64,000 nt of DNA from Psilocybe cubensis (GCA_017499595.2 CM039002.1:2046001-2110000); one strand, 5' to 3'; positions 1 through 55,119 are shown, numbered from the stretch's first letter. The notes: generated by a model from the letters alone, not told the origin. A program made the numbers and translations.

Positions 1-2631
1 AATTATTGGAAGATTTTTTGTTTTGGTATTTTGACTCTTTCGTGTTGCTATTGCTCAAGGTAGGTATCTTTCTCAAGCATACTATATTGCTTGACTTGTC
101 ATCTGATCATATGCATGCTAGACAAATTTCTACGTGACGGACTCCTCTGCTTTCCGTAACAATGTTCTCTATTTCAGACATGACGACTGGGCAACCTTAT
201 GCGCTCCGTTGGTTGAAAGGTTGACATCTGTTACCTTCGAAAAGCTTACAGATGTATGTTTTGTTTTCCTTATATCCTAATACACTCATCAATTCTGTAT
301 TCTTTGTACTCAGGAGGAGGCAGCCGCCATCTTGCGACAACGCAAATTGGGATTCTCATTTGTACGCCTTCTACCTAAAGAAACTGGTGTCAGGCCTATT
401 GTCAATCTTCGAAGAAGGAAAGCGTCAGCAAAGGTATTGTGTATTCCTTTAAATATACCAATATGCACCAAATGCATACTATCGCAGGGCTCCTATGGCA
501 ATGAACAGTCGATCAATCAGATCCTCCAAGGCGCCTTCAGTATTTTGACCTATGAACGGGTACGTAGTTTGCTTTTTTATGTAGTCTTATGTCGTATAAT
601 TGGTTTTGACAAACTTACTGTGCCCAGAGTAACCAGCCTGAAAATCTCGGAGCGTCGATCTTCAATTATAATGATATATGCCTGAAGTTAAAAAAGCTGA
701 AAGCCAGTCTTCCGAGAGACTCGAAAGGTGGATTGTGAGTCGAATCACCACCCTATGTCTTAACAAGTTACTAAGAATCGAAGTAGACCCAAACTTTACT
801 TTGTGAAGCTAGATGTCCAGGCCTGTTTCGATACCATTGACCAAACAAAGTTGCTGCACGTTATACGCCAGCTGATATCAGAGGTACAGGGAATTTCTCT
901 GATTAAGTTTTGAAGGGAATCTTATAACTTATTAGGATGTATATATGATTCAAAAATACGGACAAGTACGGTCGTTAGCTGGCAAAATCAGAAGAATGTT
1001 CCTCAAGAAGGCAGTTCCTGAAGGTGCGATTGCTTTTTCCAAGATCATGAAGTGACAAAGATTTATTTCTTTGCACATAGATGACCATCCTCATTTCATG
1101 CGTTATGCTGCTGACCTGGCTGGCTCCCTTCGCGATGTAATTTTCGTGGACCAGGTAGGCTTCATGTTTCATTCTGAACTTTGTCGACGTCCTGACCACA
1201 ATAGGTGGTTTATCCTCTTTCTAAGAAGCAGGAAGTTCTACAACTTCTCGAAGAACATATCACCGAAAATATTGTCAAGGTATCTTTCTTGCCTCGTGTA
1301 ACTGAACACTGATGGATGTAGACTGTTCTTAGATAGGCTCCACATACTATCGTCAGATGGTCGGCATTCCACAGGGATCCATTCTTTCGACTATATTATG
1401 CTCTTTCTTCTATGGAGACCTCGAAAAGAGATTTGGAAAATATACTGAAGATCCACATAGCGTGAGTGCAGCAAAATTTCACGTAAATATTATCTAACCA
1501 AAGGTATAGGCCCTTCTGCGACTTACTGATGATTATTTATTTGTTACGACAAATCTCGAGTCTGCGAAGGGATTTTTAAACATGATGAAAAAAGGTTCGC
1601 CGGCTAGACATTTCCGGTTAGCAACGAAGGCTGATATCTTTGTAGGTCATCCGGAATATGGATGCTTCATCGCACAAGACAAAACTTTAACGAACTTTGA
1701 ACATGGTGACCATACGCTGAATGTATTGGACCTAACTCAAAAATGTGTGTGTTGTCATATTTTCAGAACATCCTCAATTTTTGACGGATTAATCAAGCTT
1801 TTCCTTGGTGCGGCCTTCTGATTGGAATGCAAGACTTATCAGTTAGGGTGGACTACAGTCGATACAACGGAAGCGGTAAGCGATTCATGATCCTCTTTTC
1901 TTTGAAGAGTATGATTTTGAGCGTTATCACGAGCAGGAATCGGAAGCACGCTAACCGTAGACAGAGGCCGACGCCCTGGCGTATCTTTCATCTACAAGAT
2001 GCTGCAGTACGTATAGCGGCGGGCTGTGTGTTATAATTATGCTGACAAGCCGGAACGGTACAGGCCAGTCAAGCGAAAAAGTCATGCAATATTCTCTGAT
2101 CGCGAGCTCAACAGCAAACACATTGTATACCTGAACATCTATCAGAATTTGCTTCTGACGGCGCTGAAGATGGACGCTTACATTTCAGCGCTGGGAGAGG
2201 GTGGAAAGAAGAATACGGCTTTCCTGCGCAGTAAGTGTACAGTGCGGTCAAGGGCTAGCTAGCCTGATCGTTTTCTATCTTTACCCGTGAAGGTGTCATC
2301 CAAAAGACAATCGTGTATAAGTACACGTCTGTCCGTATGCACGCACGGAGCGAAGGCAACCAGAATGACGGTACCAACTCTGATATTCACAAAGAGGCTG
2401 TGATGTGGTGAGTCCGCTCCTGCCCATTTTTATCTCACCAAGAATGACGCCCTTGGCAGGCTCGGCAATCATGCCTTCCAGTATATCCTGAGCCGGAAGC
2501 CCCAGAAATACAAGGCATTGGTGTGGTGGTTGAAGGTAGAAATGGGGAGGATGAAGCGTAAATCGTACTGCTACCAGTTCAAAGAGCTGGTCACAGAGGG
2601 TCAGAAGGACTTTGCTGTGATCGCAGTCTGA
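1..2631 (+). CDS. TERT: Telomerase reverse transcriptase, multi-exon, 5' part outside the window
   Basis: Spliced translation shows the T motif FYVTDSSAFRNNVLYFRHDDW, motifs 1/2 VRLLPKETGVRPIVNL, motif A YFVKLDVQACFDTI, B' GIPQGSILSTILCSFFYGDLE, C LLRLTDDYLFVT and E FPWCGLLI. Last exon ends ...DFAVIAV* (TGA 2629-2631). Confidence 0.97.
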
Positions 2632-3109
2632 TCTTGAGCTGAATGTCGGGGACGCATCGAAGGATCTGCGGTAGTGCTTTGTCAAAAGATTGGCGGACAC
2701 GTGACCATTCCCGCCGGATGATGACTTCTCTCGGAAAACGGACGGTTGACGCACGTGAGGAGGCGCGGCGTAACAGCCTGTCACCCCCCTCACTGTAAAT
2801 GTGTCACGCTGACCGTCGTCTTCCATTTTGGGAAGGCGTGATGGTCGATCGTCACCTCGCTTTACGCATGTTTCGTACTCAACCTATTGCTCCCCGTTGC
2901 CTCTATACCTCTTTTATTCGCTTCTCCGTCTATCGTTACCGCTTTTGCTAATTTCTCTTAATTACAGATGCAACTATGACCTCATTTCCAAAGGCTTTGA
3001 ATTGCCAGCAGCAGCAACATCAACAAATCCGATCAGGAATCTCTATGGACCTACGCTTGTGTTGGCTCTCATCTTTGTCTTGACAGTCCTCGCTCTTCTT
3101 CCTGGGGCA

Positions 3110-4793
3110 ATGGAAGAACTTCAAAGCATCAATAAGTCATCAATTCTGTTGGAGGTTGATGTTGAGAAAGGGCCGCCTCAGTCAGATGCAAGCAGGCTTC
3201 CGCTTCCCGCTCAGTCCAAAGGAGGTTCAGGGATCACGGTTTGCTACGTCGATGTGTGAGTCTTTCTGTTTTTACTTATATATTCCATTTCTAATGTAGT
3301 TTTATAGTTTTAATATGAAGAAAGCTGATTTGGTAGACCTGTGTCGCCAATACAAGCTTCCTGTTTCCGGTACAATCAAGGTTCTTATCGAGAGATTACA
3401 GGAGTTTAGTGGTCAGCGAGAACAATGGGACCGGTTAGCCTACTCTCTCTGTGCTTTCCTTCTAGGTGTTTATTATAGCTAATCTATTCCTACAAGACTC
3501 ACTACAGGTGTTGCTCGTCGTTCTCATCTTGGGTTTAGCACCCATTCTTCTACAAAACCAACAGCCAGCCACAAAAAGTCAGTGCAGCGTCGTGAAAAAA
3601 TGTTTTTGGAGTCAACAAATACAGAAAATGGCAATCCGAAATCTCTTCCATCTATTCTATCAACGGCAGTTCAGCCCTCTCATCAATGGTGTCAAACTCG
3701 TCGAGCTGCCGATCTTGATTGGGTACGCATGTTGTATATTTGTTTAGTTGCCCTACAACTCATACTAAGCCCTCATTTGATGCTACAGGCACGTTATATT
3801 GTCAATTTATACCCATATCGTAGAGAAGAAACTAGGAATAGGTTGGCAGAGCGTGATGCGGCACAATTTAATCAGAAACGACTGGTAAGTAGTAAACATT
3901 CTTATTATTGTTTTATCATTAATTGTATCTATATATCTAGTTCTCAAGCTCAAATGACGATGACGTTAAGGCTGGGATTGAGATAGCGAATGGCCATCTC
4001 TTAAAAATTGTCAACTGGGTTGAAGCTGGGACTACTTCTCCTCATCCAACTCCATCGCCCTCTCATCAGCTTCAACCAAGCACATCCCACTTTTCGGTGG
4101 CAGCTACTAAGGATTTGCAAAATTCTCAAGGTCATTCAATTTCTGCTTCTACCACAACCACTCCTACTCGCACAGTAACTATGGCTAGTGGATCTATTAC
4201 TTTTTCATCATCCGATGTTCCACCACCACCCGCTGTTTCATTTGCTTCTGATATTCCTGGATTGAATCGCATGTGGGACGATACAAGCATTTATTGGGAT
4301 GGATATTCTGTGCTTACAATTAAGGGAACGGCCATTCCTATTGTATACTGGAAGGAGATATACACCTCTAAGGGTAGTGTTGAATGGAAGCCGAAGCAGT
4401 GGGAGTCACTCAAAGGGAAATTTTTTGATTGGAAGGTAACTGGCTAATGTTCATTCTTGAATCTTGATGAATATGTTTTGACCGCTTTTTGCTCAGATTC
4501 TTGTCCATCAATGGCGACAAGGATCTCCCGAAGATTTCTGGGCTAAATTCACCAAAGACGGCAAGATACTGGGCTATCGTCAAATTCTTGATCAACTCGC
4601 TGAACAAAGAACTGCTCATGATGCACTTTTTGCACAACAGATTATGCACGAGTATGGTAATCAATTTTCATCTATTTTTTCTTATGTTAAGAATGGGACA
4701 AGACATGTCAAGACAAAACCTTGTCATATTATTAAGCAGTACCGTAGGATGAAGGGTCTCATTAACGAAGACGACAATGATGAGGATAATTAG
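3110..4793 (+). CDS. SAP-domain DNA-binding protein with a Trp-rich C-terminal domain (multi-exon)
   Basis: Exon ~3308-3433 reads FNMKKADLVDLCRQYKLPVSGTIKVLIERLQEF, matching the SAP helix-loop-helix pattern. Later exons read DIPGLNRMWDD...IVYWKEIY...QWESLKGKFFDWKILVHQW. Stop TAG 4791-4793. Confidence 0.7.
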
Positions 4794-4842
4794 TTGATTA
4801 TGTTTTTGCTCCAATATCTTACATCAATTATATATAATTTTA

Positions 4843-6526
4843 CTATGCACAGTGACATGTTCGTCCACACATAAAGCACTTGACTGCAGGTGGTTTATCA
4901 GAATTAAAAAAGTCTTCTCGACGCTGTGTTGGGTTATCATTCCAAGATATTAGATATCTCACAATAGTGAGATTAGAAAATTCAGTACTCCATCCACCCC
5001 ATTCACAAATAGTGCGAATAGACCAACGTCTTTCTGATGAAAGGTATTGGCAACCACCACGACGGAAAGAGTGTGTTCCATATGGTATTGGATCAACGCC
5101 AATATCAAGAAGATTGTTTCGGAACAGCTCAAGAAATTGCTCTGATGTCTATTTGAATGAGAAATAAGTAGAAGCATTTGTATAAATAGCATACCATGGG
5201 TATGTTATCAGCCGATGGCCTATCCCCAGATGCAATCTTTCGAAAAATGTAGCCATCGGTAATCTCGCTTGCATCAAGCCAATTTGCCATTGCACGAACA
5301 GGACAAAGATGAGCCTCATTTTCTGCTAGTAACCGCAGATAAAATGGCTTAATTCCTAAAGAAATATATATTAGAATAGACTTCAAATAGTTTAAAAAAG
5401 TTTTACCGCCATGCTGATGTGTTTTGCGAAATGGTAGTGTAAGAACCAGTCCAGGTGGATTCATCTGATAAACAATATGTTCACGTCGGATTTTCAATAC
5501 CTCATCTGATCGGAGTAGACAGAGAAAAGCAATTGTATAAATTGCCTCAAGAGCGCGTCGGGCTAATCCTCCTCCCCAATGGTTGCTATCTTGTTCTTTT
5601 CTAGACCCTGGAGCATAGGGTTTGATATCATAGTTTTCGGATTTATGATTTTCATCATAAAGAGCTTTTAGAGTAGCTGAGGTGATTGCGCGTGCACTTG
5701 TTGGTGTTTCACCATTTCGAATCTAAAAAGGAGATATATAGTCAAAACTACAGCCAATCAAGCAATTTGAGTGCAACTTGAACATTACCTTCCGAGCACG
5801 CAAACTCATCATGTATGTTGCTACGGTGTCGGATACTGATGGATTTCCTATCATTTTACCCGTAAGCTCATTTCTTCTCCACCTATCTGAGCCTAAACCA
5901 AGTTCACGTCCAAAAAGATATGTCATAGACGCTCTCATCTTTTGGCCATGTACATAGGAATCACGGACAACATGTGTTGGCTTTAAAGTTCCATCAAGAT
6001 AAATATCATCGCATCTAGAAAATACGGTAGTTTGAAAAAAATTCCAATAGAGAAAATCAATAAGCTTACTTGTCCATAATCCATGCCGCAATGAAAAAAG
6101 GTGCATCGTCGGGTGGATTGCAACAAGCAAAATCTTCACGTTTTTTAATCATGTTCTTGCTAATCAGAAACTTGATACATTGCTTGATAAGACTAGAATA
6201 AAAACAAAATAAGCGCACTATTTAGAAATGAAGACAGGATAGTATTACCGCTGATAATCAGCATCAGTTTTGTCTGTGACTCCTTTAGATGCACCAGTAA
6301 TTGTATCTCGCCACTTGGAAGCTGTTGGATTGTGGCTATCTAAATCTTCACTAGAAAGATCATGAAGTGACAGATTGGGCAGAGTCTCTGTTTCACCGTC
6401 GAGATCGTTTTCAACGTCTTCTGGTATAAATGGTTCATTTTCAATAGTAGGAGAAGGACTGCCAGATATAATGGAGTTTAGACCGGCATAGATTGAGTTT
6501 GAGGGCACCACCATTGAGGAAAGCAT
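4843..6526 (-). CDS. Tyrosine recombinase / DNA breaking-rejoining enzyme (multi-exon)
   Basis: Spliced reading frame is open and has the catalytic residues in order: R (FLCLLRSDEVL), K (FRKTHQ), HxxR (YGTHSFRRGGCQY), W (EWGGWS) and Y (IVRYL). It also has HLCPVRA, an N-terminal GNPSVSDTVATYMMSLRARK motif and a C-terminal CFMCGRTCHCA*. Confidence 0.92.
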
Positions 6527-6741
6527 AGTAGGGATTAGATTTAAGAAATTGTAGCGGAAAGGAGTACACTGATTAGAATATATACTTTTGTAAAGCTTAC
6601 TGCGGACAAAACAGATAGGAGTAGTAGACTCATTTGAAACACATTGTAAGAAGGCAATTTACAGCAAGGAGGCGATCTAGTGGCATTATGGTGAAGACAC
6701 GCTCAAACACGTAAAAAAACAAATATAAGCCATACCTAATT

Positions 6742-8342
6742 CTAAATACCCTCCATCATATTACTTGGAATCCATGCACGTAGCTTTGGAAGACAATTTT
6801 GAATCCAAGAATCGACACTTGATTGATCAAATCGAGGATTTTCTTGAGCCGCTCGAAGCCTATTAATGCCATCTTGAATAATGTCTTTTGGAAAATCAAT
6901 CTTGACACGTAATTCCGGAGAGCGCTTGCTAGATTGTCGCTTCCCAACAATTTGGCCAAAAAACATGTGGCCATAATAATGAAAGCCAATATCCCGAGCT
7001 CGAGCAATTTGCATTGCCGACCTAAGTGCAATTCCAGGAAGAATGCTGTTAGACAGGTGGCGTAACATAACCACAGCATCTGTACCCCATACGAAATGAT
7101 CTTCGGCAAATAGCATCATGGCTGGAAGAGATAGTTGACGAGAAAAAAGAACTGGAATGAGATCATCGGATACAACAGGATGGAGATAATAGCTTAGTAT
7201 ATCGGAAGAGGGAAAGTCTGCCGGAAGATTGTGGGCCAAAGATGGGCAGCGGCGAGGTAAATGAAATGAAGAATTGCTATGAGCTTCACTTATTAGCTGG
7301 CTTCGCCATTCATGTAGGAATTGTTGCTGTGCTTCTTGACTGTAGTTGTTTTCCTTAAGGCCACACGCTAGTGATCGACCAAAACCAGCTTTTGCAAGTC
7401 CAAGTGCTGTTTCAATGCCACAGCCTTTGACTCCACCCTTAATAAAAAAAAGTTATAATACAATTAATAGAAAGAATAAATTGGAAAATTACAGGATTGT
7501 AGTCGCCACCAACCAATAGTGCAATAAGAACCATATCCTCGCTATTCATCTGAAGAGCTTGAAGAATATCAGATGATCGATATACAACCACCTGTTCATC
7601 ATCGGACACATCTTCATCGCTATTAAAATGCCATATTAAAATTTAGATTGAGTTGAGCTAAAAGTGTACTTACATTCGCAAGACAGTTGTGGTACCAAAT
7701 ACAATACTATCAGAGTCTTCTGTAAGAACGGCATCGAGATAGTCCTCCTTTGTAAGTCTGGCAAGCTCCGCTTCAGCTTCACCAGGTGCCTATTCCCATA
7801 ATATGTATGAGCCGCCCAAGCCTTAGGCTACTGCAATAACCAATAAAGAACATACCTCACACCAAATAAAACCGTAAGCATCTAACAGCGATTTGAAATC
7901 AGCTTCAATCCAGTGGCGATTTCCCCTTATGTTCTTTTTGCGCTTTATACTTGGTTTGTTGGGGCCATCAAAGACAAAGATGGGCAGAATAGGAAGCGAG
8001 TATAGGCGGCTACAGCGAGCATTTAGAGTAGCAAGCTCCATATTCTTTGTAGCACCGTGTCGGTAGCATGCACGGTAAATCCACCCCCTATTGTCAATAA
8101 CACCGAATCAATTTATGTTTTTGAAAAAGAAATCAACAATATATACATACATTGCATCAACACCAAGCCTATATCCTCGGGTTCCTTGACGGTTTGACAT
8201 AAATCCATCCTCAACAGCCAGACGTTGAAACGAGGCTCGTGTTGCTACAGGGTCTAGTAGCTACATAAATCCAATCTGTCAGCAGCTACGTGCAAGAGTC
8301 ATAGAAAGTCATACGCACCTTCCACAGGCCTTTAACGCCCAT
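6742..8342 (-). CDS. XPG/Rad2-family (PIN-like) nuclease, GEN1/Yen1-like; 3' end approximate
   Basis: Spliced translation gives MGVKGLWK, RLGVDA, PIFVFDGPNKPSIKR, APGEAEAELA, DAVLTEDSDSIVFG, LLVGGDY and GVKGCGIETALGLAKAGFG, i.e. XPG-N, XPG-I and H3TH motifs with the acidic catalytic residues present. Confidence 0.9.
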
Positions 8343-8602
8343 CGTATGGAGGCTAAACGAAAGCTAGATCAATAGCGGACAAAAGATAGATATAAGATAA
8401 ACCCACCCGAAATGTTTTGCAAATGTCTAAGCATCAATGTCTGTGAACAGAAACGCATACAGACCACGATAATGAGCCAAACTATTACAAAAGGGGTATT
8501 ATTTGAGCAAAGATTGTGATCTACACAAAAAACTCAAGAGTTCTAGCTGTAATTTAAAATAAATCATATTAATTTTGTAAAAGCGGAGTAGTAGAACAAA
8601 TG

Positions 8603-8710
8603 CACGGCAATAAACACCTCATGCTAGCCATACAGAAGCGCCTCGGCCCAGGGATGATCCTTAGTTTCTTCTGTACGGCTAGCATGTGGTGCCTAGCAGA
8701 CACGGCAATA
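8603..8710. repeat. 24-bp-arm inverted repeat bracketed by a 10-bp direct repeat
   Basis: CACCTCATGCTAGCCATACAGAAG (8615-8638) pairs with CTTCTGTACGGCTAGCATGTGGTG (8668-8691) with 2 mismatches. CACGGCAATA occurs at 8603-8612 and 8701-8710. Confidence 0.85.
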
Positions 8711-9305
8711 TAATAGAATAATATTTTTCAGTACTTGAAAAGCACAACCATAGGCCTGTGTACGTGTCTGCATGCATGCGAAGAAAGGATTTGAGGTGGC
8801 GGCAGTGATGCAAGGAAAGATGATGGATGGTGTGAATGTGTATCTATAGCTTATACTCAGTAATACGAATAAAATCAAGAATCAAAGAAGAGGGCACTGG
8901 CAGCCTAGTGTATGCCCAGGCATGAGTATTCCTGGGCTGCCATTGTGCGACGAAAAGGATGGGGGTATTCCATAATAAAGTATCAGAACACACCTAGATT
9001 CCAATTCTATCCTCTACGTAGCACCCTAAATCAAACAATCTAGCTTGCGCTGCAGGGCAATTTGCATGACTAAACGGCTCCGTTGAGCGACAACACTGCA
9101 AAAAAAATGCTAAGATACTTACCGGAGTGAGCCTCTTGACCAACCTACGAGACAGACGTATCTCATAAATTATAGCACCACACAGCTGATGGAGGGAGAT
9201 GTGCATGGATGGGACGCAAGGAGGAGGTGCATGAACGGGAGAGAGCAGGAATCATCGATTCAACCAACACGCGTGCCAGCACTACACGTGATTGGACGTG
9301 CTGAT

Positions 9306-9362
9306 TGTAATTCACGCGACTCCTGTAAATTCACGCGACTCCTGTAAGATTCACGCGACTCC
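9306..9362. repeat. 3x tandem repeat TGTAA(A/GA)TTCACGCGACTCC
   Basis: Identical 13-bp core TTCACGCGACTCC at 9311, 9330 and 9350. Confidence 0.9.
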
Positions 9363-10425
9363 CTGGTTAAAACACGCGTTACGCACGTTGTATATGGCAG
9401 TGTCGTGCCTCGGCAGCAGGCATTAGTGTAGTACGTGAGATAACAAGGTGTGAACGTCATTCTCTCACTATGAACTGTCTTTTTTTACAGTAGAACTGTC
9501 TTTTATTGGCCCAATTGAGGTAAGCTTGATGCCGTATTTGCCTTCTGATCGTCATTTCTGAGCCTTGGCTCAATTTCGTAGTTTCCAATCTCGCCAATTA
9601 GTCAATACGTTAGTCACACCAATCCACGGCAATCCACCCTACGTAAAAAAGAATGTTTTATTGTTCAATTCTACGGTTATGGTGTGTAGTGCGGCATTGA
9701 ACCTTAAGCTTAGCCAAACTCAAAACCCACTGCCCTCCTGCGAGGAATTTCTCTATGGAACGGGTCCCTTGAACGTGCTCCAGCAAACTCTAAGTTTTTA
9801 CAGAAGGTCAGAATCTGAGTCGTAATAATATGTCATATTAGTTAGATCCGGTAAACTACAAATCAGCACGAATATGTAGCTTTAAAACAAGCCTTGTTCC
9901 CCCTCTCCTTCTTTCCATCTTTCTGCGTCCGTCGTCGGTGTCAAAGCATCTCGAAAAAAATGCCTGTTGCAATTGATTCATCCGCCCTAGTATGGCAGTG
10001 AGTAGGGTTTTATGTACTATCTGGTCGCAAGCTTGCTCCATGCTTTTACTGTTACTTGTGCCCTCAGAACTTTTCGTTTTTCTTGCTGCTGCCATCCCGA
10101 GGCCCTCCACGGCGACGCCGTTTGAACCCGTTTTGAGTGATCGAGGGCACCTCGGCACACCTCTCGTGCGAGGGTTGTGCGAGGGTTAGGGTCGATCGTA
10201 ACGCTGTGACCGATGGCGCCGATCGCTTTGTCAGGCTGTGCCAACCGTCTTTCTGCTCGGTCGCAGCTGTACTTCCCGGGGCGCTTTGTGAACATTGTTA
10301 TTACTACTACTGGGTCTCTTTGAATCGGGCCCGACCCAGGTCAATAAATTGAAATAGGCATCTGAATTTTATCTCAACTCAAGCTCACGATCACGCACCC
10401 GGGTATCTTATTTCCATAGTCTTCC

Positions 10426-11345
10426 ATGCGATTGCTCAGCACCACTGTCCGGAGTTGCTTAAATACTACACACACTGCCAATAGCTACCACAACCTCCTC
10501 TTCGCCACACGCTCCATACAACCATCGTCTTTGTTACTGAGACCCCGCCTTGCATTCACATACACCACAATGGCTACTTCAGGATTCTACTCTTTGAAAG
10601 CTGAGCTCCCAGGCGGCAAGACATACGACTTTGCCGATCTCAAGGGTAAGACGGTCTTGATCGTCAACACTGCTTCGAAATGGTGCGCCACAATCACCTA
10701 TTTTATCTACGCTTTCTCCTTTACTCATTCACATATGCACACGCAGTGGATTTACACCTCAATACAAGGGTATGCAGATGAATATCACGCTTCTCGTGAG
10801 GCAGGGACGTCATGATCGCTGATACCATCCTACCCAGGTCTCCAAGAGTTGTATGAGAAGTACAAAGACCAGGGTTTCGTTATCCTCGGCTTCCCCTGCA
10901 ACCAGGTGCGCTCACCCCACCATGCTTCAGGCGTCAACTCTCGAGCACTCTCGCTGACATCATATCTTATCTCCAGTTTGGTGGCCAGGAACCCGCGAAC
11001 GATGAAGGCATCCAGGAATTCTGCACGCTCAACCACGGCGTCACCTTCCCACTCATGAAAAAGTCGGACGTCAACGGCGACAACACCAACGAGGTGTACA
11101 AGTGGCTCAAGGCAGAGAAGTCTGGTCTGCTCGGCCTCACCCGCATCAAGGTCAGTTCAGTCCAGCTTTCATCCTTCTGCCCTCCTCCCCCTTCGCGCAT
11201 CCACTTCGTGTAACGCATACTCATTGTTAACGTTTAGTGGAACTTCGAAAAGTTCTTGGTCGACAAGAACGGAAAGGTCGTCAACCGATGGGCGTCCACC
11301 ACCACCCCCGCAGCCATCGACGCCGAAGTCGCCAAGATCCTCTGA
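10426..11345 (+). CDS. GPX: Glutathione peroxidase (Cys-type, Gpx/Hyr1 family); second in-frame ATG at 10570
   Basis: NTASKCGFTPQY (Cys codon TG|T split by an intron), LGFPCNQFGGQEP and [13 protein letters not shown]. Confidence 0.95.
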
Positions 11346-11896
11346 CTAGAAGATGGCAGCAGCAGCAAATCCGAATCTGAAGGGGGAGGGTCTGCCAAAT
11401 TATGAATATATATAAACGAACGTGCACTGCACGGATTCGGAGGAGTCACAACTGTACGATTATGCATAATGGAAGTATATCTAATTTATTTATCGGTTTT
11501 CTTTCTTCGAAGTTGGAAGTTGGAAGTGCGATTTGAGTGCGGTCATGGCCATTTTTGAGCGATCGGGAAGATGAACACCGTAACTTCCTATAAAGCACTC
11601 CACTGATTTTCGACCTGCATATCGACCGAAAATTCGCAGAAGTGCATAAATTACTGCACTCCCGATCGCTCTTGAGCCATCCACATAACACCAAGAATAT
11701 CCAAACCGCACGAAAAAAACAACGCCATGATCCAATATACCGACAATTCGGCGGAGATACATCACCTGCAAGGTGCTTTACGCCCACAGGGCAAATTTCT
11801 CTACAATCACGCACTGCGTTTTCATATACACATTACTCACTGAGGGCCGCCGTGCTCAACTTCTCGTTCGACGAGGCATTGTGGTCCCATAACACA

Positions 11897-13425
11897 TTAC
11901 CGGAGAGCGGGATGGCAGTAACCCAAGAACGTCAAGAACCACGCTCGGTAAAATACACCCCAACCTTCTTCTTTCCTGATCCTCTGGAAGCAGTCCAAAA
12001 AGTTGGCATACGGCCTTTGCTCAGTAGTCAAGCTATCAAAAAACAGATAAGAGTCGAATCAGTCAAAAAAAATCTTTTTAAATCATTGTAAAACTTACTG
12101 CAAATACGAAGGCGGCGCAACCATAAGCATCTTCTCAGACTCCCTCTCCTGTTCGATCGGCTCATGGACAGGCTGGATCGCCAAGCGCGTAAGGACAACA
12201 TCCACAGGCGCCATCACCACCGCCACCGCACCCATAAGCAGCGGGTACGCCACCATCCGCGCAATCGTCCCCCACATAACATTCTTCAAAAGCTCCTGCA
12301 CAAGGGCCGTCCAGGGCTGCCCCTGGTACTTCTCGTCAGTCGGGTCGAAGCCCTCCGCTGTGAGGTCGCCCAGGTTGTAGAACGGGGTGCGCAGGAGCGG
12401 GAGGAGGAGGAGGTCGATGCAGAGCAGGCAGAGGAAGGGCAGGATGAACGGCGAGTGGCGTATTGCGCGGAAGGGGTGCGCGCGCTCGTACTCGGAGAAG
12501 ATGGTGCGGAAGACGGACTTGGGTTTTCCAAAGTTGAGCTTCTGTTGGCATACGATGATTCTGTGGTGCAAGGTAGATGAAATGTGAGTTAGCTGGCCTG
12601 TACAAAGTGAGGGAAAGCAGCTCGAACCTGTATGTTAAAATGAGGTAAGGGATGTAAAACAAGTTCTTTATAATCGCTTCATAGTAGGACACCAAGTATA
12701 CACAAGGGCCTGGGGTAACATATAAACGGAAGAAAATGAACGGGAAGAAGAGTCCTGGGACTGCCGCAAACAATCAGCAAGCTGGTTCCCATACACAAAT
12801 CGAACAGGACTCACATATGCCTCTGAACGTCCCAGAAATGTGCTGTCATAAAAAAAATTCAGTCACTCGACCATTATCAGCGTTAAATGTACGCAATAAT
12901 CCATACCTCCCGGTTCCAGACGTTCTTCGCAACCCCAAGAAGCGTCGGGGGACCCGTCAACTCGGGAACCAGCTCTCCATAGGGTGTCCCGTCGATAAGT
13001 AGGGGTTCCGTAACGACAGCGCTATCTGGCACCACAGGCTCAGCTCCTGCCGTGCCTTTGAGCACGGTAGGATCCTTTGACTTCACCGTGCTATCCAGCG
13101 GCACATCGACAGCAGCGGAAGTAGGTGGAAGCGCAACCTCTGCATCCACCTGGTCAAGAGTGCTCTTGGGATAGTACGTCGCCCTGTATCTGACGATATT
13201 CCCAATGATCGGGATGGGTACCAACATTATGACGGTCTGCATCGTATACGGCTAGTTTCAAAAGAGTGAACTGGGGTCGGGGTCGATGATAATCGTATAG
13301 TCTACCAGAAAGGTATAGGTTTGAAGATAAAGAAAAGATAGGCTATATGACACGAACAAGCAACTAAATCAGTGTTGATGGTGTCCGGGCAGTACAAGTT
13401 TGTCTGACTCGTTTTAGTTTCCCAT
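11897..13425 (-). CDS. Divergent mitochondrial carrier (SLC25)-like membrane protein; start uncertain
   Basis: Hydrophobic segments plus carrier-like motifs PVDVVLTRLAIQ, VAKNVWNRE and YANFLDCFQRIRKEEGWGVFYRAW. Stop at 11897. Confidence 0.55.
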
Positions 13426-50777: not shown

Positions 50778-53700
50778 TTAACCTGCTGCAGAACTAGACA
50801 TAGATAGGTCGTCATTGACATTCGTGGATCCCAAACGTGGCTCGACAACGTGTCCAACTTCAGGATTTGGCCGTGGTCTTATTCTTGGCCTTAGATTCAA
50901 TGCAACTTCGCGCAAGGCTGCGTCGTTGTCATCAACAGGAGCGGGAGCATCTTCCGCCTCATCGACATAACCCGGCGAACTGCTGCCACTTGAATCTGCA
51001 TCCTTCCGTTTTGATCCTCGGGCACCACCACGTCGACTACCTCCTGTTTGTCTTCTACTTGAGGAAACAGCTTTCGTTTGTCGGGCAGAGGTTGATTTAG
51101 ATTTGCCTTTTCCTTTGCTACTCACCGTTGTCCTTCGTTTTTTTGAAGGTGGGGAGGTATTGTCTCCACTACCTGATGCATCGCTTTTTTCTTCCGGCAA
51201 AGGTGTATTGGAACGTGAGGAGGGCTGAGCGGATCCGCTCTTTTGACGCTTCCTAAAGTCTGAAATAACCTGCTGAAGACGTTTGCTTTGATATGCCCGG
51301 CTTTGCCGAGGTGCGTGTGTGCCACTACCAGCTGCAATATCCAGAAACTCGTTCAGATTTCCTTGCTTATTCAAGGCAGCATTCTAGATGCCGGAAAGGC
51401 TTCAGAGATTTGCTACACAAATATTTCGAATAAGGAAACATGCCTGGTTACGCTTATTCATCTTTTGCAAAATTGGCAGTATCAGCTCATCGACTTTGGC
51501 CTGACTCCAACCGAGTTCTTGATGAAAAAATCTAGAAAAGAAATTAACATTCGTTTGATTGCTGAAAGACACTATTCTTACGTGCGCAGTCCATCCAGGT
51601 CTGGCATGCCCCACTTGAAGGGTTCCTCAGAGCTATCCACCGTTGGATGATAGTACGCATCCCGCTATTGAGATTGTTTAAATATTTAAAACGTTCCTGG
51701 GGTGCTTTGAATATATCGTACCACGACAGAGTTGGGCCAGTCTGCAGGCAGGTACAGATTTTTAAATTTCTTTTTCTAAGGGTGAAGTTCATTCTGATAA
51801 GATAGTTTCAAAGGAATAAGTCTTATCGACTTACAAATTGCTTTCGAAATTTGGATTGATTATCTTCTTCTCGGTCTTTCCCGGACTGAACCTTTGCCCA
51901 CCAATCTTTAAACTTGTGCAAACCAGAAATTCCCGGAAATTCTTTCAGGAGTTCCATGGCCACTACAGGACCAACACCTGGCAAGCCTTCCGTGTAGTCG
52001 CTTCCAAGAAGATATGCCAATCGTATTAACGTGTCGCGATCGAGCCCAAGCTCTCTCGACAAATCGGTGAGCAAGAAACACTCCACTGTTTTTGATTGGT
52101 TGAACATATTCTTGTAAACTCTTTGGGCACCAAACAGAAAAACATCAGAGTCGTCGGTGATGACGCCGTCAACAAGTCCCAGAGAAACAAGTTCTGCACA
52201 TTGTGCTTCCGCTTCCATGGGTGCTGTGATGTATGGGATACCGAATAATCGAAGCATCGTCTGTACATATTAAATGAACTTTATACGTTTCTGTCCACAA
52301 AAGAAAACATTTACCATGATCTGAGTAACCATCTGTTGTGTAATATCCTCAGAATCTCGCATTGCATTCTTTCTTTGTTGATCGAGAGCAGTAATTTCTG
52401 CGTCGATTTCTTTCCTAACGTCATCCATATTCTTTCCTTTGACTTGGGACATGAAGCGGGCAAATTCTCCTTGTTCTGCATTGATGTCGATCTCCTCTGC
52501 TGCATCCCAATGAACTGGGGATGAGGGTGGACGACGGGGTGAGTTATTTTCACGTATAGGGGATGGCGTTCGGGACCACGCAAAAAGCCGCTCTTCTTCC
52601 GTTTCACTGGAATCGACTAACCGTTCCGTATCTTTCTTGGACATTTGACTTTGCTCTTCATTCGGCGACGAAGGCGTATAATGAGGCTGGGAAGGAGGAG
52701 TGGAATTAGTGTTCATCGGAGTGAATGGAATAACAGGAGCAACGTTGTCAACGGGTATTTCTTCCATGTCCTCGTCCGAGTCGGAAGCAAGAATAGCTGT
52801 TTCGGCGTCAAACTCCCTGATTGGAAGAGAGGAGGGAGGTGTCGTAGACAGCAAGTGGGCAGCCATGCCTTCTTCCATCGGGAAGTCCTTAAGGTCAGTA
52901 GCAGTTTCTTTATCATAGGATACAGGCTTTGCCTTAGGTGAAGCCGTATCGCTACTGGCAAGTAAAAGAGATGGTGTCCCGAACGTAGCTGTCGTAGTCA
53001 AAGCATCTTCGTTTGGTAAAGGCACGGAATCGATGATGGTCGATGGTGGATTGCGTGGGCGTGAAACAGAGGTATTACCGGAAAGAAGGAAAGGCTGTCC
53101 AAATCCTGAATTTTCAATATTTTCAGTGCGAACCATTTCGATGCTGGCCTGTGGAGACTGGCCTACAGCAGAGTTGGTAGGAGATTCTGTATGTGCCTTA
53201 TAATCATGGGTGTCTTTGTTGGCTTTAAGGGGAGACATGTCTTCCATGATATAGTTATTGTCATCATCGATACTAGGTGATAAGCCATCTTTCGAAATAC
53301 GATTGTTCGAAGATGTTAGGAGTTCGGGTCTTCCAAACATCGGCCGCTTGTTGTCATTTTTGGGAGGTGTGGTTAAGACGCGAGAAGAACCAGAATTTGC
53401 GAAAGAAAGCGCCGTTTCCAGGCGCGTACGCGGCGTACTGTCCACGTAAAAATCGTCCTCATCATCCTCTCCTTCCAACGAAATATTTTGTTGGCGAGTT
53501 GATGTCTCTGCAGTCGAATTAGTTTCATGAATCGAAATCGTTGTTGATTTGCATTTGGATTTGGATTGGTCAAGGGATTCTTGGATGGCATACGCAAGCA
53601 TATCATCCTCATCAGATTCTTCGAGCAGTGATGGAGAGAGTGCATCGTCGCCATAAACGGATTTCAAGGCAGCTGACCTTTTGTTACGCGAAATAGGTTG

Positions 53701-55119
53701 GAATTTAGAGCGATTATCTCGAATTCTTCGAGTAATTCCTGACAATGCATTTTCCCTCTGATATTCACGCAATTTAGTATCATCATGGGTGGGCGGTGGC
53801 CTAAGAAATATATGAGACGAAAACCTGCTACAGTTTATCATGATGTGACGTACATTTCAACTTCTTCCATGTCTGCATCACTGTCTTCTTCCTCCTCAGG
53901 TTCAGCTTCTTCATGGTCAAGTACTATAGGCTTTTCTCGGGTTCCAATGTCTTTGATACCCAATATCCATCCACCGTCTACGCCTTCATTCTTCATGAGC
54001 ACATATTCTCTGTTTCTCTCACTCGCTATACGGATTGGTATAACAATGTTGGCTTTTCCGATAGTGTCAGTAGTCATCAAAAGTTGCTGTGTGAGGGCGT
54101 TGCGCTGTTGAAGGTTCCGTATCTGCTGCTTAGAAAAATCAAGCGGGGTCCGCGCGGTTTTAAGCATCTTCTGTAGTCGTGCATAGGATGTCTGGCGAGA
54201 TTTCAGTCTTAGATCGCCAATGATTTCGTACTGAATCTCAGTAGGTAGTTCTCGGAATTCTGGAGAGTTTATGTCAAAATCTTCCGGTCGCATCTCTTCA
54301 ATGAAAGTGCGAAGTTCATCTTCCGTCGCTAGACGAGGATCAGGGGCAGCCGATCGGGTGGCTTTTGTTATGGCTTCTTCAAGATCAACTTCCGGCAATT
54401 TGTATGGGTCATGGTCGTGAAATTTGTTCTTTTTTGTCGAACTCGATGAAGGTGTAGGAGGTTTCCTTCTGACAGGAGTTTTCGGTGCAGTGCCATCGAT
54501 ATCTTCAAGAAAGACTGTATTTTCATCTAATAGTATATCCCGATTCTTGCCCTTCGATCTTTTCCCCCTACGTGAGGTTTGAAACGCAGAGACATTATCA
54601 AGGGCAGAGTAAATACATACTGATTGCTCTGAGCTTGGTTAAGAGCTTCTCGTCTCATTTGAGCGGCGAGAAGCTTCTCAGCCAACTTTACATGTGTAGT
54701 TGCAGCGCCGCTCTTCTTCTTCTTCCGTTCATTCTATATATGCAAAACAGGTGTTAGAGGAACAAAAACAGAAAAAATGAGACTTGGAAAACATAAACGT
54801 ACCAGGGTTGACCTCTTTAACGCAGGCGCTCCACCGTCGAACACAAAGACAGGCTTGATACCGAAAAACAACAATTTGGCAATTCGTCGTAGGAAGCCCA
54901 ATACATGAGCATTGACCAAGGCACGTCCTTCTTTGTCGCGCATGGTGGCCTGAAATTGATACAACCAGATACTGGAATCAATGGCCATGACTTTTCCTTC
55001 AACTGTCTCGAGCCTTCGTTGACCATCAGATAATGCCTGGAGCAAGATTCAACTGTGCTTATTCACATTACAGGACGGCCCACAGGAGTCAGAAGGGTCC
55101 ATAGCGACTTGACTCCCAT
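50778..55119 (-). CDS. RAD2: Nucleotide excision repair endonuclease XPG/Rad2
   Basis: [29 protein letters not shown], a long spacer with UBM/UIM-like segments, then [27 protein letters not shown] and LLGSDYTEG. Confidence 0.96.

Follow-up and report, generated by a model that had tools for sequence, protein, structure and literature searches.

The stretch of DNA analysed here, which we refer to as the window, comprises 64,000 nucleotides of the Psilocybe cubensis genome (GCA_017499595.2, CM039002.1:2046001-2110000), and near its start three genes lie between the 3′ part of the TERT gene on the left and a glutathione peroxidase gene on the right. These genes, coding for a SAP-domain protein on the plus strand and for a tyrosine recombinase and a GEN1-like nuclease on the minus strand, had been picked out by a reading made from the sequence alone as three intact, spliced genes that might form a mobile element. 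Indeed, all three proved to be intact six-exon genes: the spliced models derived from the window match the database proteins P0041, P0038 and P0031 letter for letter, each with five spliceosomal introns bounded by GT/GC-AG, and all three proteins are identical to annotated P. cubensis proteins. The intergenic gaps given in the sequence-only reading (49 bp and ~215 bp) are exact as well, the stops of the SAP gene (4793) and the recombinase gene (4843) being 49 bp apart and the nuclease stop (6742) lying 215 bp from the recombinase ATG (6526). Likewise, Pfam searches with the exons, the full proteins and six further open reading frames (ORFs) of the non-coding part returned no reverse transcriptase (RT), gag or DDE domain, in keeping with what had been stated.

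That these genes form a discrete mobile unit is indicated by sequencing runs in which the site is empty. Runs were mapped to window positions 1001-12000; X1 is the likely source of the window and perhaps the same sample, hence not independent, while X12 (raw DNA reads), X9 (DNA contigs) and X10 (probable RNA contigs) are independent of it. All three of the latter contain a joint that leads directly from position 2723 to 10271, skipping 7,547 bases, as seen in 26 raw reads with 22 different start places in X12, in one 986-bp contig in X9 and in one contig in X10. The mobile unit thus extends with exact ends from 2724 to 10270 (7,547 bp). It begins with the five letters ACTTC (2724-2728), which recur as a direct repeat just beyond its right end (10271-10275); since these letters fit both sides of the joint, the empty site retains a single ACTTC and is otherwise free of scars, and we regard the pentamer as a candidate crossover core. 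The discrete unit of the sequence-only reading, which had been placed at 2690-9470, therefore holds as such, but its left edge was off by 34 bp and its right edge fell ~800 bp short.

The same runs have a depth of 0 over nearly the whole unit (2836-10175) in X12 and X10, except for a 45-bp repeat (8900-8945, in the bin 8708-9074) in X12. X9 is likewise empty, with reads at this repeat and, in the bin 6506-6872, a depth of 2.01. These strains thus lack the unit entirely, and their site is a clean empty site. They form a related lineage, with the same species label as X3, which contains the unit. The suggestion that the interval between TERT and the peroxidase gene would yield an empty site and exact junctions in related strains has thereby been borne out. 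As a separate observation on this locus, a 2,625-letter contig of X10 runs from spliced TERT exons across the empty site into spliced peroxidase exons, which suggests read-through or overlapping transcripts over the short intergenic region that the element splits in the window genome. In the window itself, the TERT part is recognizable in a fused gene model (P0044) with the Pfam domains Telomerase_RBD, RVT_1 and TERT_C, and the peroxidase gene starts at ~10.4-10.6 kb (GSHPx, Pfam 2e-13).

In X1, by contrast with the empty-site runs, the unit is present as one 7,552-bp contig (2724-10275) with 0 variants and a word depth of 40.1, compared to 10.4 and 9.33 in the flanks, a ratio that points to about four identical copies. 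ACTTC stands at both ends of this high-depth contig, and the X1 copies would therefore all share that pentamer on both sides. In addition, another flank contig of 5,182 bp ends in the first 29 bases of the unit and thus represents a second left flank.

The annotated P. cubensis genome gives a matching picture. Exact protein look-ups found five SAP, five recombinase and at least four nuclease models, arranged as five SAP-recombinase-nuclease sets that are numbered consecutively, by accession as well as by locus tag, and lie on three contigs, namely KAH9481586-588 on a 3.68-Mb contig, KAH9482199-204 on a 4.15-Mb contig and KAH9487060-064 on a 4.68-Mb contig; the order is SAP, recombinase, nuclease in every set. 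Three SAP models share their first 13 residues, namely P0034 and P0040, which come second on the two larger contigs, and P0042 from another annotation. For P0040, these residues map to window positions 9960-9998, spliced to ~2954 onward, which places the right arm of one copy directly before the left arm of the next. Two of the three contigs thus apparently hold head-to-tail tandem pairs. Altogether, the element-bearing P. cubensis genome carries about four to five identical copies at three or more loci, which answers in the affirmative the test for different flanks proposed in the sequence-only reading, and the ~4x depth in X1 agrees with this number of integrated copies, with no extra episomal excess. 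Besides these sets, a second, divergent SAP-family gene lies on another contig (P0064, JR316_0008007; 33% identical); it may be a remnant or else belong to a second family of elements.

The recombinase gene (6526-4843, minus strand; exons 6526-6249, 6192-6070, 6014-5789, 5722-5407, 5355-5195 and 5148-4843) codes for 469 amino acids. As a single sequence, the protein has no significant match in Pfam or the PDB, and it was profile and fold searches only that gave matches. An AlphaFold model built with 23 homologues (mean predicted local distance difference test score, pLDDT, of 74.5) has Cre as its best fold (1kbu_B, E 8e-9, probability 1.0, 378 columns), and the match spans both the core-binding and the catalytic domain. 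From the alignment of homologues, we propose R280, K309, H394-x-x-R397, W421 and Y433 as candidate catalytic residues; the blocks around them recur in those homologues whose models reach them, many of the 23 gene models ending before the C-terminal blocks. We therefore consider the element recombinase to be intact and, as far as the model goes, of the Cre fold. It ends in a Cys-rich tail (residues 458-469). Phage_integrase was detected in 6/23 homologues and NDC10_II in one (1/23), while DUF3435 (at E<=1), DUF3504 and GCR1_C were found in none of the 23; GCR1_C is also absent from the element protein itself. The nearest structure cluster in the Atlas is labelled 'Ndc10 domain-containing' (template modelling score, TM, 0.70).

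Convergent with the recombinase gene, the SAP gene (3110-4793, plus strand; exons 3110-3255, 3308-3433, 3497-3722, 3789-3884, 3941-4435 and 4497-4793) encodes a protein of 461 amino acids with an N-terminal SAP motif (PF02037, 1.6e-8 on the exon), which also matches 25/36 family members. According to the structure model, the motif is followed by a long helix (residues 175-234) and a C-terminal domain (~270-450) with a pLDDT above 93. No Pfam family covers this domain, nor did the structure searches run here match it to a solved structure: Foldseek returned SAP-domain rows only, all at E>1, and a wide structure search was dominated by the helix 175-234 and barely covered the C-terminal domain. 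GCR1_C, the DNA-binding domain of CryptonF recombinases, came up for it as a language-model lead in the Atlas; the score of 0.86 is below the tool's own bar and HMMER did not confirm the match, and we treat it as a lead, not as evidence. The family of SAP partners counts 629 cluster representatives at E<=1e-3. For the more specific proposal that the protein binds DNA ends, nothing beyond the SAP domain itself speaks.

The third gene (8342-6742, minus strand; exons 8342-8319, 8260-8151, 8087-7856, 7789-7674, 7619-7493 and 7437-6742) codes for an XPG-family nuclease of 434 amino acids (XPG_I 1.4e-19 and XPG_N 1.6e-8 in Pfam). Residues 1-295 align with GEN1 of Chaetomium thermophilum (6grb/5cnq) at E 4e-47; Rad2 is next best at 6e-17, and FEN1, XPG, EXO1 and human GEN1 are all at 1e-17 or weaker. 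All acidic motifs are present (residues 41-44, 83-86, 123-130, 145-149 and 198-201), as is the helix-two-turn-helix region. Judged by these similarities, the element nuclease appears to belong to the GEN1/Yen1 branch of the XPG/FEN family. Pfam detects no GEN1_C domain (PF18380) on it at E<=0.1; two cellular fungal-type relatives have this domain. The C-terminal part of the nuclease is conserved between Psilocybe and Cyclocybe. Elsewhere in the window, at 51943-55119 on the minus strand, lies a second XPG-family gene, with XPG_N (3.3e-23) and XPG_I (8.8e-30) matches ~2.5 kb apart. It is ~30% identical to the element nuclease and has the domain layout expected for a cellular repair gene of the RAD2/XPG type.

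Recombinases of this family occur in Agaricales, Boletales and Russulales, where single genomes often hold several copies, and in some cases their neighbours could be followed. One such case is Cyclocybe aegerita, in which one fused model (P0004, CAA7260796) reads nuclease and then recombinase on one strand, and in which the next accession on the contig, CAA7260797, is a SAP homologue (P0057). To judge from these models, C. aegerita carries the same gene trio in another genus. In Suillus paluster, three models join SAP protein and recombinase into a same-strand fusion, an orientation that differs from that in the window. Ten further SAP homologues, compared by locus tag, added no further case of adjacency, and the two genes of Tricholoma furcatifolium, SAP and recombinase, lie on separate short contigs.

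A scan of metagenome contigs yielded 271 stretches encoding recombinase relatives, 80 of which were kept for analysis. Among these, 61 loci hold the recombinase C-terminus followed by 400 bp or more and could be inspected for a SAP gene, and 19 hold at least 1.8 kb upstream of the recombinase and could be inspected for a nuclease. A convergent SAP gene sits immediately downstream of the recombinase in 41/61 loci, with a median gap of ~140 bp, just as in the window; the others have it upstream (6/61, one on the same strand and five divergent) or have none that was detected (14/61). A GEN1-like gene, by comparison, lies upstream of the recombinase, on its strand as in the window, in just two of the 19 loci (L003 and L006). 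L003 shows the complete trio (nuclease plus, recombinase plus, SAP minus), while the L006 contig ends before a SAP gene could show. Linked genes in the same order and orientation, as anticipated by the sequence-only reading, thus recur in C. aegerita and in one metagenome locus. Its notion of a three-gene unit is accurate for these and for the window, but not for the wider family: given 41/61 for SAP and 2/19 for the nuclease, the conserved core is recombinase plus SAP protein, with the nuclease as an accessory of some lineages.

A stretch of 2,281 bp in L003 (6639-8919) recurs at 96.8% identity in L008 (2307-4587). The homology breaks off abruptly at either end, in one case within the recombinase gene; L008, one of the 17 loci without nuclease, is therefore a truncated copy of an L003-type element. 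In one related family without nuclease (L014, L037 and L051), more than 3 kb of conserved sequence without an XPG match lies upstream of the recombinase; its conserved ORFs (120-270 amino acids) have no Pfam family, and this sequence is possibly another accessory gene.

On a recombinase tree (FastTree, 86 rows, 8 of the 80 metagenome loci being omitted for short coverage), the alternative SAP arrangements each form one clade: the divergent upstream arrangement with a support of 100 (L019, L035, L047, L052, L053 and L058), the same-strand upstream arrangement as a Suillus-like clade with a support of 99 (L018 and P0016). The four nuclease-bearing rows, in contrast, are scattered; they require four changes, at least two of which are imposed by starred branches, and shuffled labels cluster just as well (500/500). 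In all four of them (the window, P0004 of C. aegerita, L003 and L006), the nuclease has the same position and strand, at 43-58% identity between the recombinases.

We interpret the unit as an autonomous DNA transposon of the Crypton type that has been active recently, a reading to which we assign a probability of roughly 80% and which is based on gene and end structure. Its exact ends, its copies and its empty sites support the overall view of a self-mobilizing DNA unit with a recombinase, as the sequence-only reading had it. In the mechanism we propose, the Cre-fold recombinase would pair the two ACTTC junctions and excise a 7,547-bp circle with one ACTTC, which would then re-integrate wherever it meets another ACTTC; where this happens next to a copy already in place, tandem pairs would result. 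Circle-based excision and integration at a short direct repeat is also the model put forward for Cryptons, as described in PMC3212892. The SAP protein would assist as a DNA-binding or architectural partner, a role suggested by the constant linkage of its gene to the recombinase in relatives. For the GEN1-like nuclease, an accessory of some lineages, the most likely role would be to cut Holliday junctions or other branched recombination intermediates, because it is similar to a junction-resolving enzyme.

Several points weigh against this interpretation or parts of it. Tyrosine recombinases usually bind inverted sites, and there is no significant dyad symmetry around ACTTC (60/1000 shuffles are as good). 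Formally, the ACTTC direct repeat also looks like a target-site duplication. That all X1 copies share this pentamer rests on contig breaks, with only one other left flank resolved at base level, and gene adjacency in both P. cubensis and C. aegerita is taken from accession order on one contig, not from DNA. The insertion is only loosely dated, since the strains with an empty site have flanks that diverge by several percent from those in the window. None of the RNA runs listed contains the unit, so that splicing and expression of its genes are as predicted by the gene models. The mechanism itself is inferred: no circle, excision or new insertion has been observed, and the junction of a tandem pair is identical in sequence to that of a circle, such that these data do not separate the two. 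Lastly, with 17/19 testable loci lacking it and its scattered occurrence on the tree, the nuclease may not be part of transposition.

The latter point leads to the alternative that has survived best, namely that the nuclease is a passenger, a captured paralogue of host GEN1/Yen1 riding in some lineages of a two-gene element of recombinase and SAP protein. Its patchy distribution (2/19 loci whose sequence upstream of the recombinase reaches 1.8 kb or more, and clustering on the tree no stronger than that of shuffled labels, 500/500) means that it may equally be just that, and the L014, L037 and L051 family has conserved sequence but no XPG match at the corresponding place. However, where the nuclease is present, it keeps its position and strand across four divergent elements, the active-site motifs are all intact, and the C-terminal part is shared by Psilocybe and Cyclocybe. 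An enzyme that cuts Holliday junctions would also go naturally with a recombinase that acts by way of them, and some cases of absence are truncated copies such as L008. Weighing both sides, we take passenger status as a real possibility that nevertheless falls short of an even chance. A more ambitious proposal is a two-enzyme chemistry, in which the recombinase of the nuclease-bearing elements would carry out no more than the first pair of strand exchanges at ACTTC and their own GEN1-type resolvase would cut the Holliday junction to finish excision or integration; we regard it as doubtful.

The 1.9 kb from 8343 to 10270 form a non-coding right arm, the six ORFs of which match no Pfam family. 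Across the unit, there is no Rfam match at the gathering score and no tRNA. The arm contains an inverted repeat at 8615-8691, with 24-nt arms that are 92% complementary and a 29-nt loop, whose predicted fold (z-score -4.26) was equalled by 0/200 shuffles, as well as 2.8 tandem copies of a 19-bp unit at 9309-9362. An 18-bp subterminal motif at 10185-10202 recurs as a direct repeat, 83% alike, at 2838-2855 near the left end; being a two-copy family, it may be due to chance. We consider the 19-bp repeats, the 18-bp motifs and the hairpin at 8615-8691 to be candidate protein-binding sites. A 45-bp piece at 8900-8945 can also form a hairpin (z-score -2.4). X1, X12 and X9 show loose ends at 8900/8901 and 8945, and the piece occurs elsewhere in the genome with other flanks, including in strains without the unit; it might derive from some other small repeat. 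As for larger repeats, we found no terminal inverted repeat (the end-versus-end alignment was equalled by 60/1000 shuffles) and, by self-BLAST and repeat scans, no second copy of the unit or long repeat inside the window. The interior had been called AT-rich, which is only mildly true, with a GC content of 0.421 in the unit, 0.461 in the window as a whole and 0.434 in the left flank. A 9-mer, GCTTTGTCA, is present both in the target flank (2676-2684, 39 bp left of ACTTC) and in the right end of the element (10224-10232, 37 bp left of ACTTC). With one target examined, this pair may be chance or a hint that targets resemble the element's own junction.

Such an arm could also serve as an origin, and one might ask whether the unit is primarily a self-replicating nuclear circle, a plasmid- or virus-like episome for which the yeast 2-micron circle is the model, with the chromosomal copies as by-products. 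The compact size of 7.5 kb, the hairpins and repeats of the arm, a recombinase accompanied by a chromatin- or DNA-binding SAP protein that could tether a circle, the complete absence of the unit from related strains and the head-to-tail copies, which fit integration of a multimeric circle, would all be compatible with this. Yet no replication protein was found by Pfam in the exons, proteins or six ORFs, every copy seen is a set of chromosomal gene models on megabase contigs, the ~4x depth in X1 fits integrated copies, and each of the three genes has five spliceosomal introns; we consider an episome improbable. We give still less credence to an origin of the copies by host segmental duplication, ectopic recombination or an unlinked transposase acting in trans, with the recombinase uninvolved, because, compatible as the ACTTC pair is with a 5-bp target-site duplication and lacking as are inverted recombinase-type sites around it, all copies have identical exact ends and the same pentamer, the empty site is free of scars, there are no terminal inverted repeats, and the recombinase-SAP module recurs, often in multiple copies, in at least 271 environmental stretches and many agaricomycete genomes, which is the signature of a self-propagating element.

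We thus judge the element to be real and recently active, a Crypton-type element whose set of genes is unusual. Eukaryotic DNA transposons that use a tyrosine recombinase are rare and mechanistically almost unstudied, and the ends of Cryptons are hard to define. Here, the ends are known to the base, the empty site is exact, the copies are identical and strains naturally free of the element exist, so that excision, circle formation and integration can be tested directly. The recombinase-SAP family is widespread in Agaricomycetes, as illustrated by 629 representatives of the SAP partner and 271 environmental recombinase stretches. A transposon-borne GEN1 paralogue beside a recombinase that uses Holliday junctions is an unusual pairing which could reveal a new division of labour. 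If the two-enzyme chemistry were true, it would be of a type not known in eukaryotes, and this would be the first eukaryotic transposon family shown with a Holliday-junction resolvase of its own, apparently active now. Furthermore, a compact recombinase with a defined 5-bp core in a mushroom nucleus is a possible genetic tool.

How does the unit compare with known systems? The gene set had been thought not to correspond to a described type, and our searches of a paper library found no published description of it; Repbase, Dfam and supplements were outside this search, and a curated entry may exist there. The one mention of Psilocybe that these searches found is an uncharacterized 'tyrR' inside one psilocybin cluster. 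At the level of function, lambda Int with Xis/IHF and Flp of the 2-micron circle are integrases with accessory DNA-binding partners or circle-based recombination. They invite comparison in how they work, that is, in circle excision and integration at a short identical core, but have no sequence relation to the element beyond the recombinase fold, and arm-type or inverted core sites as in these systems were not identified in the unit. With the GEN1/Yen1 resolvases, the element nuclease shares the core (residues 1-295) and the acidic motifs; it differs in being only 434 amino acids long, in lacking a GEN1_C match and in being encoded by a transposon.

DIRS and Ngaro elements, too, encode a tyrosine recombinase and are reported from Basidiomycota in PMC13465315, but we rejected this identity for the unit, as it has neither RT/RNase H nor their characteristic terminal repeats. 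Starships (PMC10104507; bioRxiv 10.64898/2026.09.21.753150) are fungal DNA elements moved by a tyrosine recombinase; a circular intermediate has been reported for them, and they share with our unit a presence/absence polymorphism with clean empty sites. However, Starships belong to Pezizomycotina and are giant, cargo-carrying elements with a DUF3435 'captain', as opposed to a 7.5-kb unit in a basidiomycete; DUF3435 in 0/23 homologues, no cargo gene and the wrong phylum rule them out. According to a preprint from 2026, Basidiomycota are without any characterized Starship-like element.

This leaves the Cryptons, and CryptonF in particular, as the closest known systems in structure. Like the unit, they have a tyrosine recombinase as their only recombination enzyme, no RT and no terminal inverted or long direct repeats, and the fungal host and intron-bearing genes are further common features. 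Cryptons are described as having a 4-6-bp direct repeat at both termini, taken as the crossover substrate, and a circular intermediate has been proposed for them (Kojima & Jurka 2011, PMC3212892). The ACTTC repeat, one copy of which is left in the empty site, falls within this range. Structurally, then, the unit qualifies as a Crypton, though not as a CryptonF, in which the recombinase is fused to GCR1_C. What sets the unit apart from CryptonF is its gene content: three genes instead of one, a recombinase without GCR1_C (0/23) that has a Cys-rich tail instead, a separate SAP-domain protein as the constant partner of this recombinase and, in some lineages, a GEN1-like nuclease.

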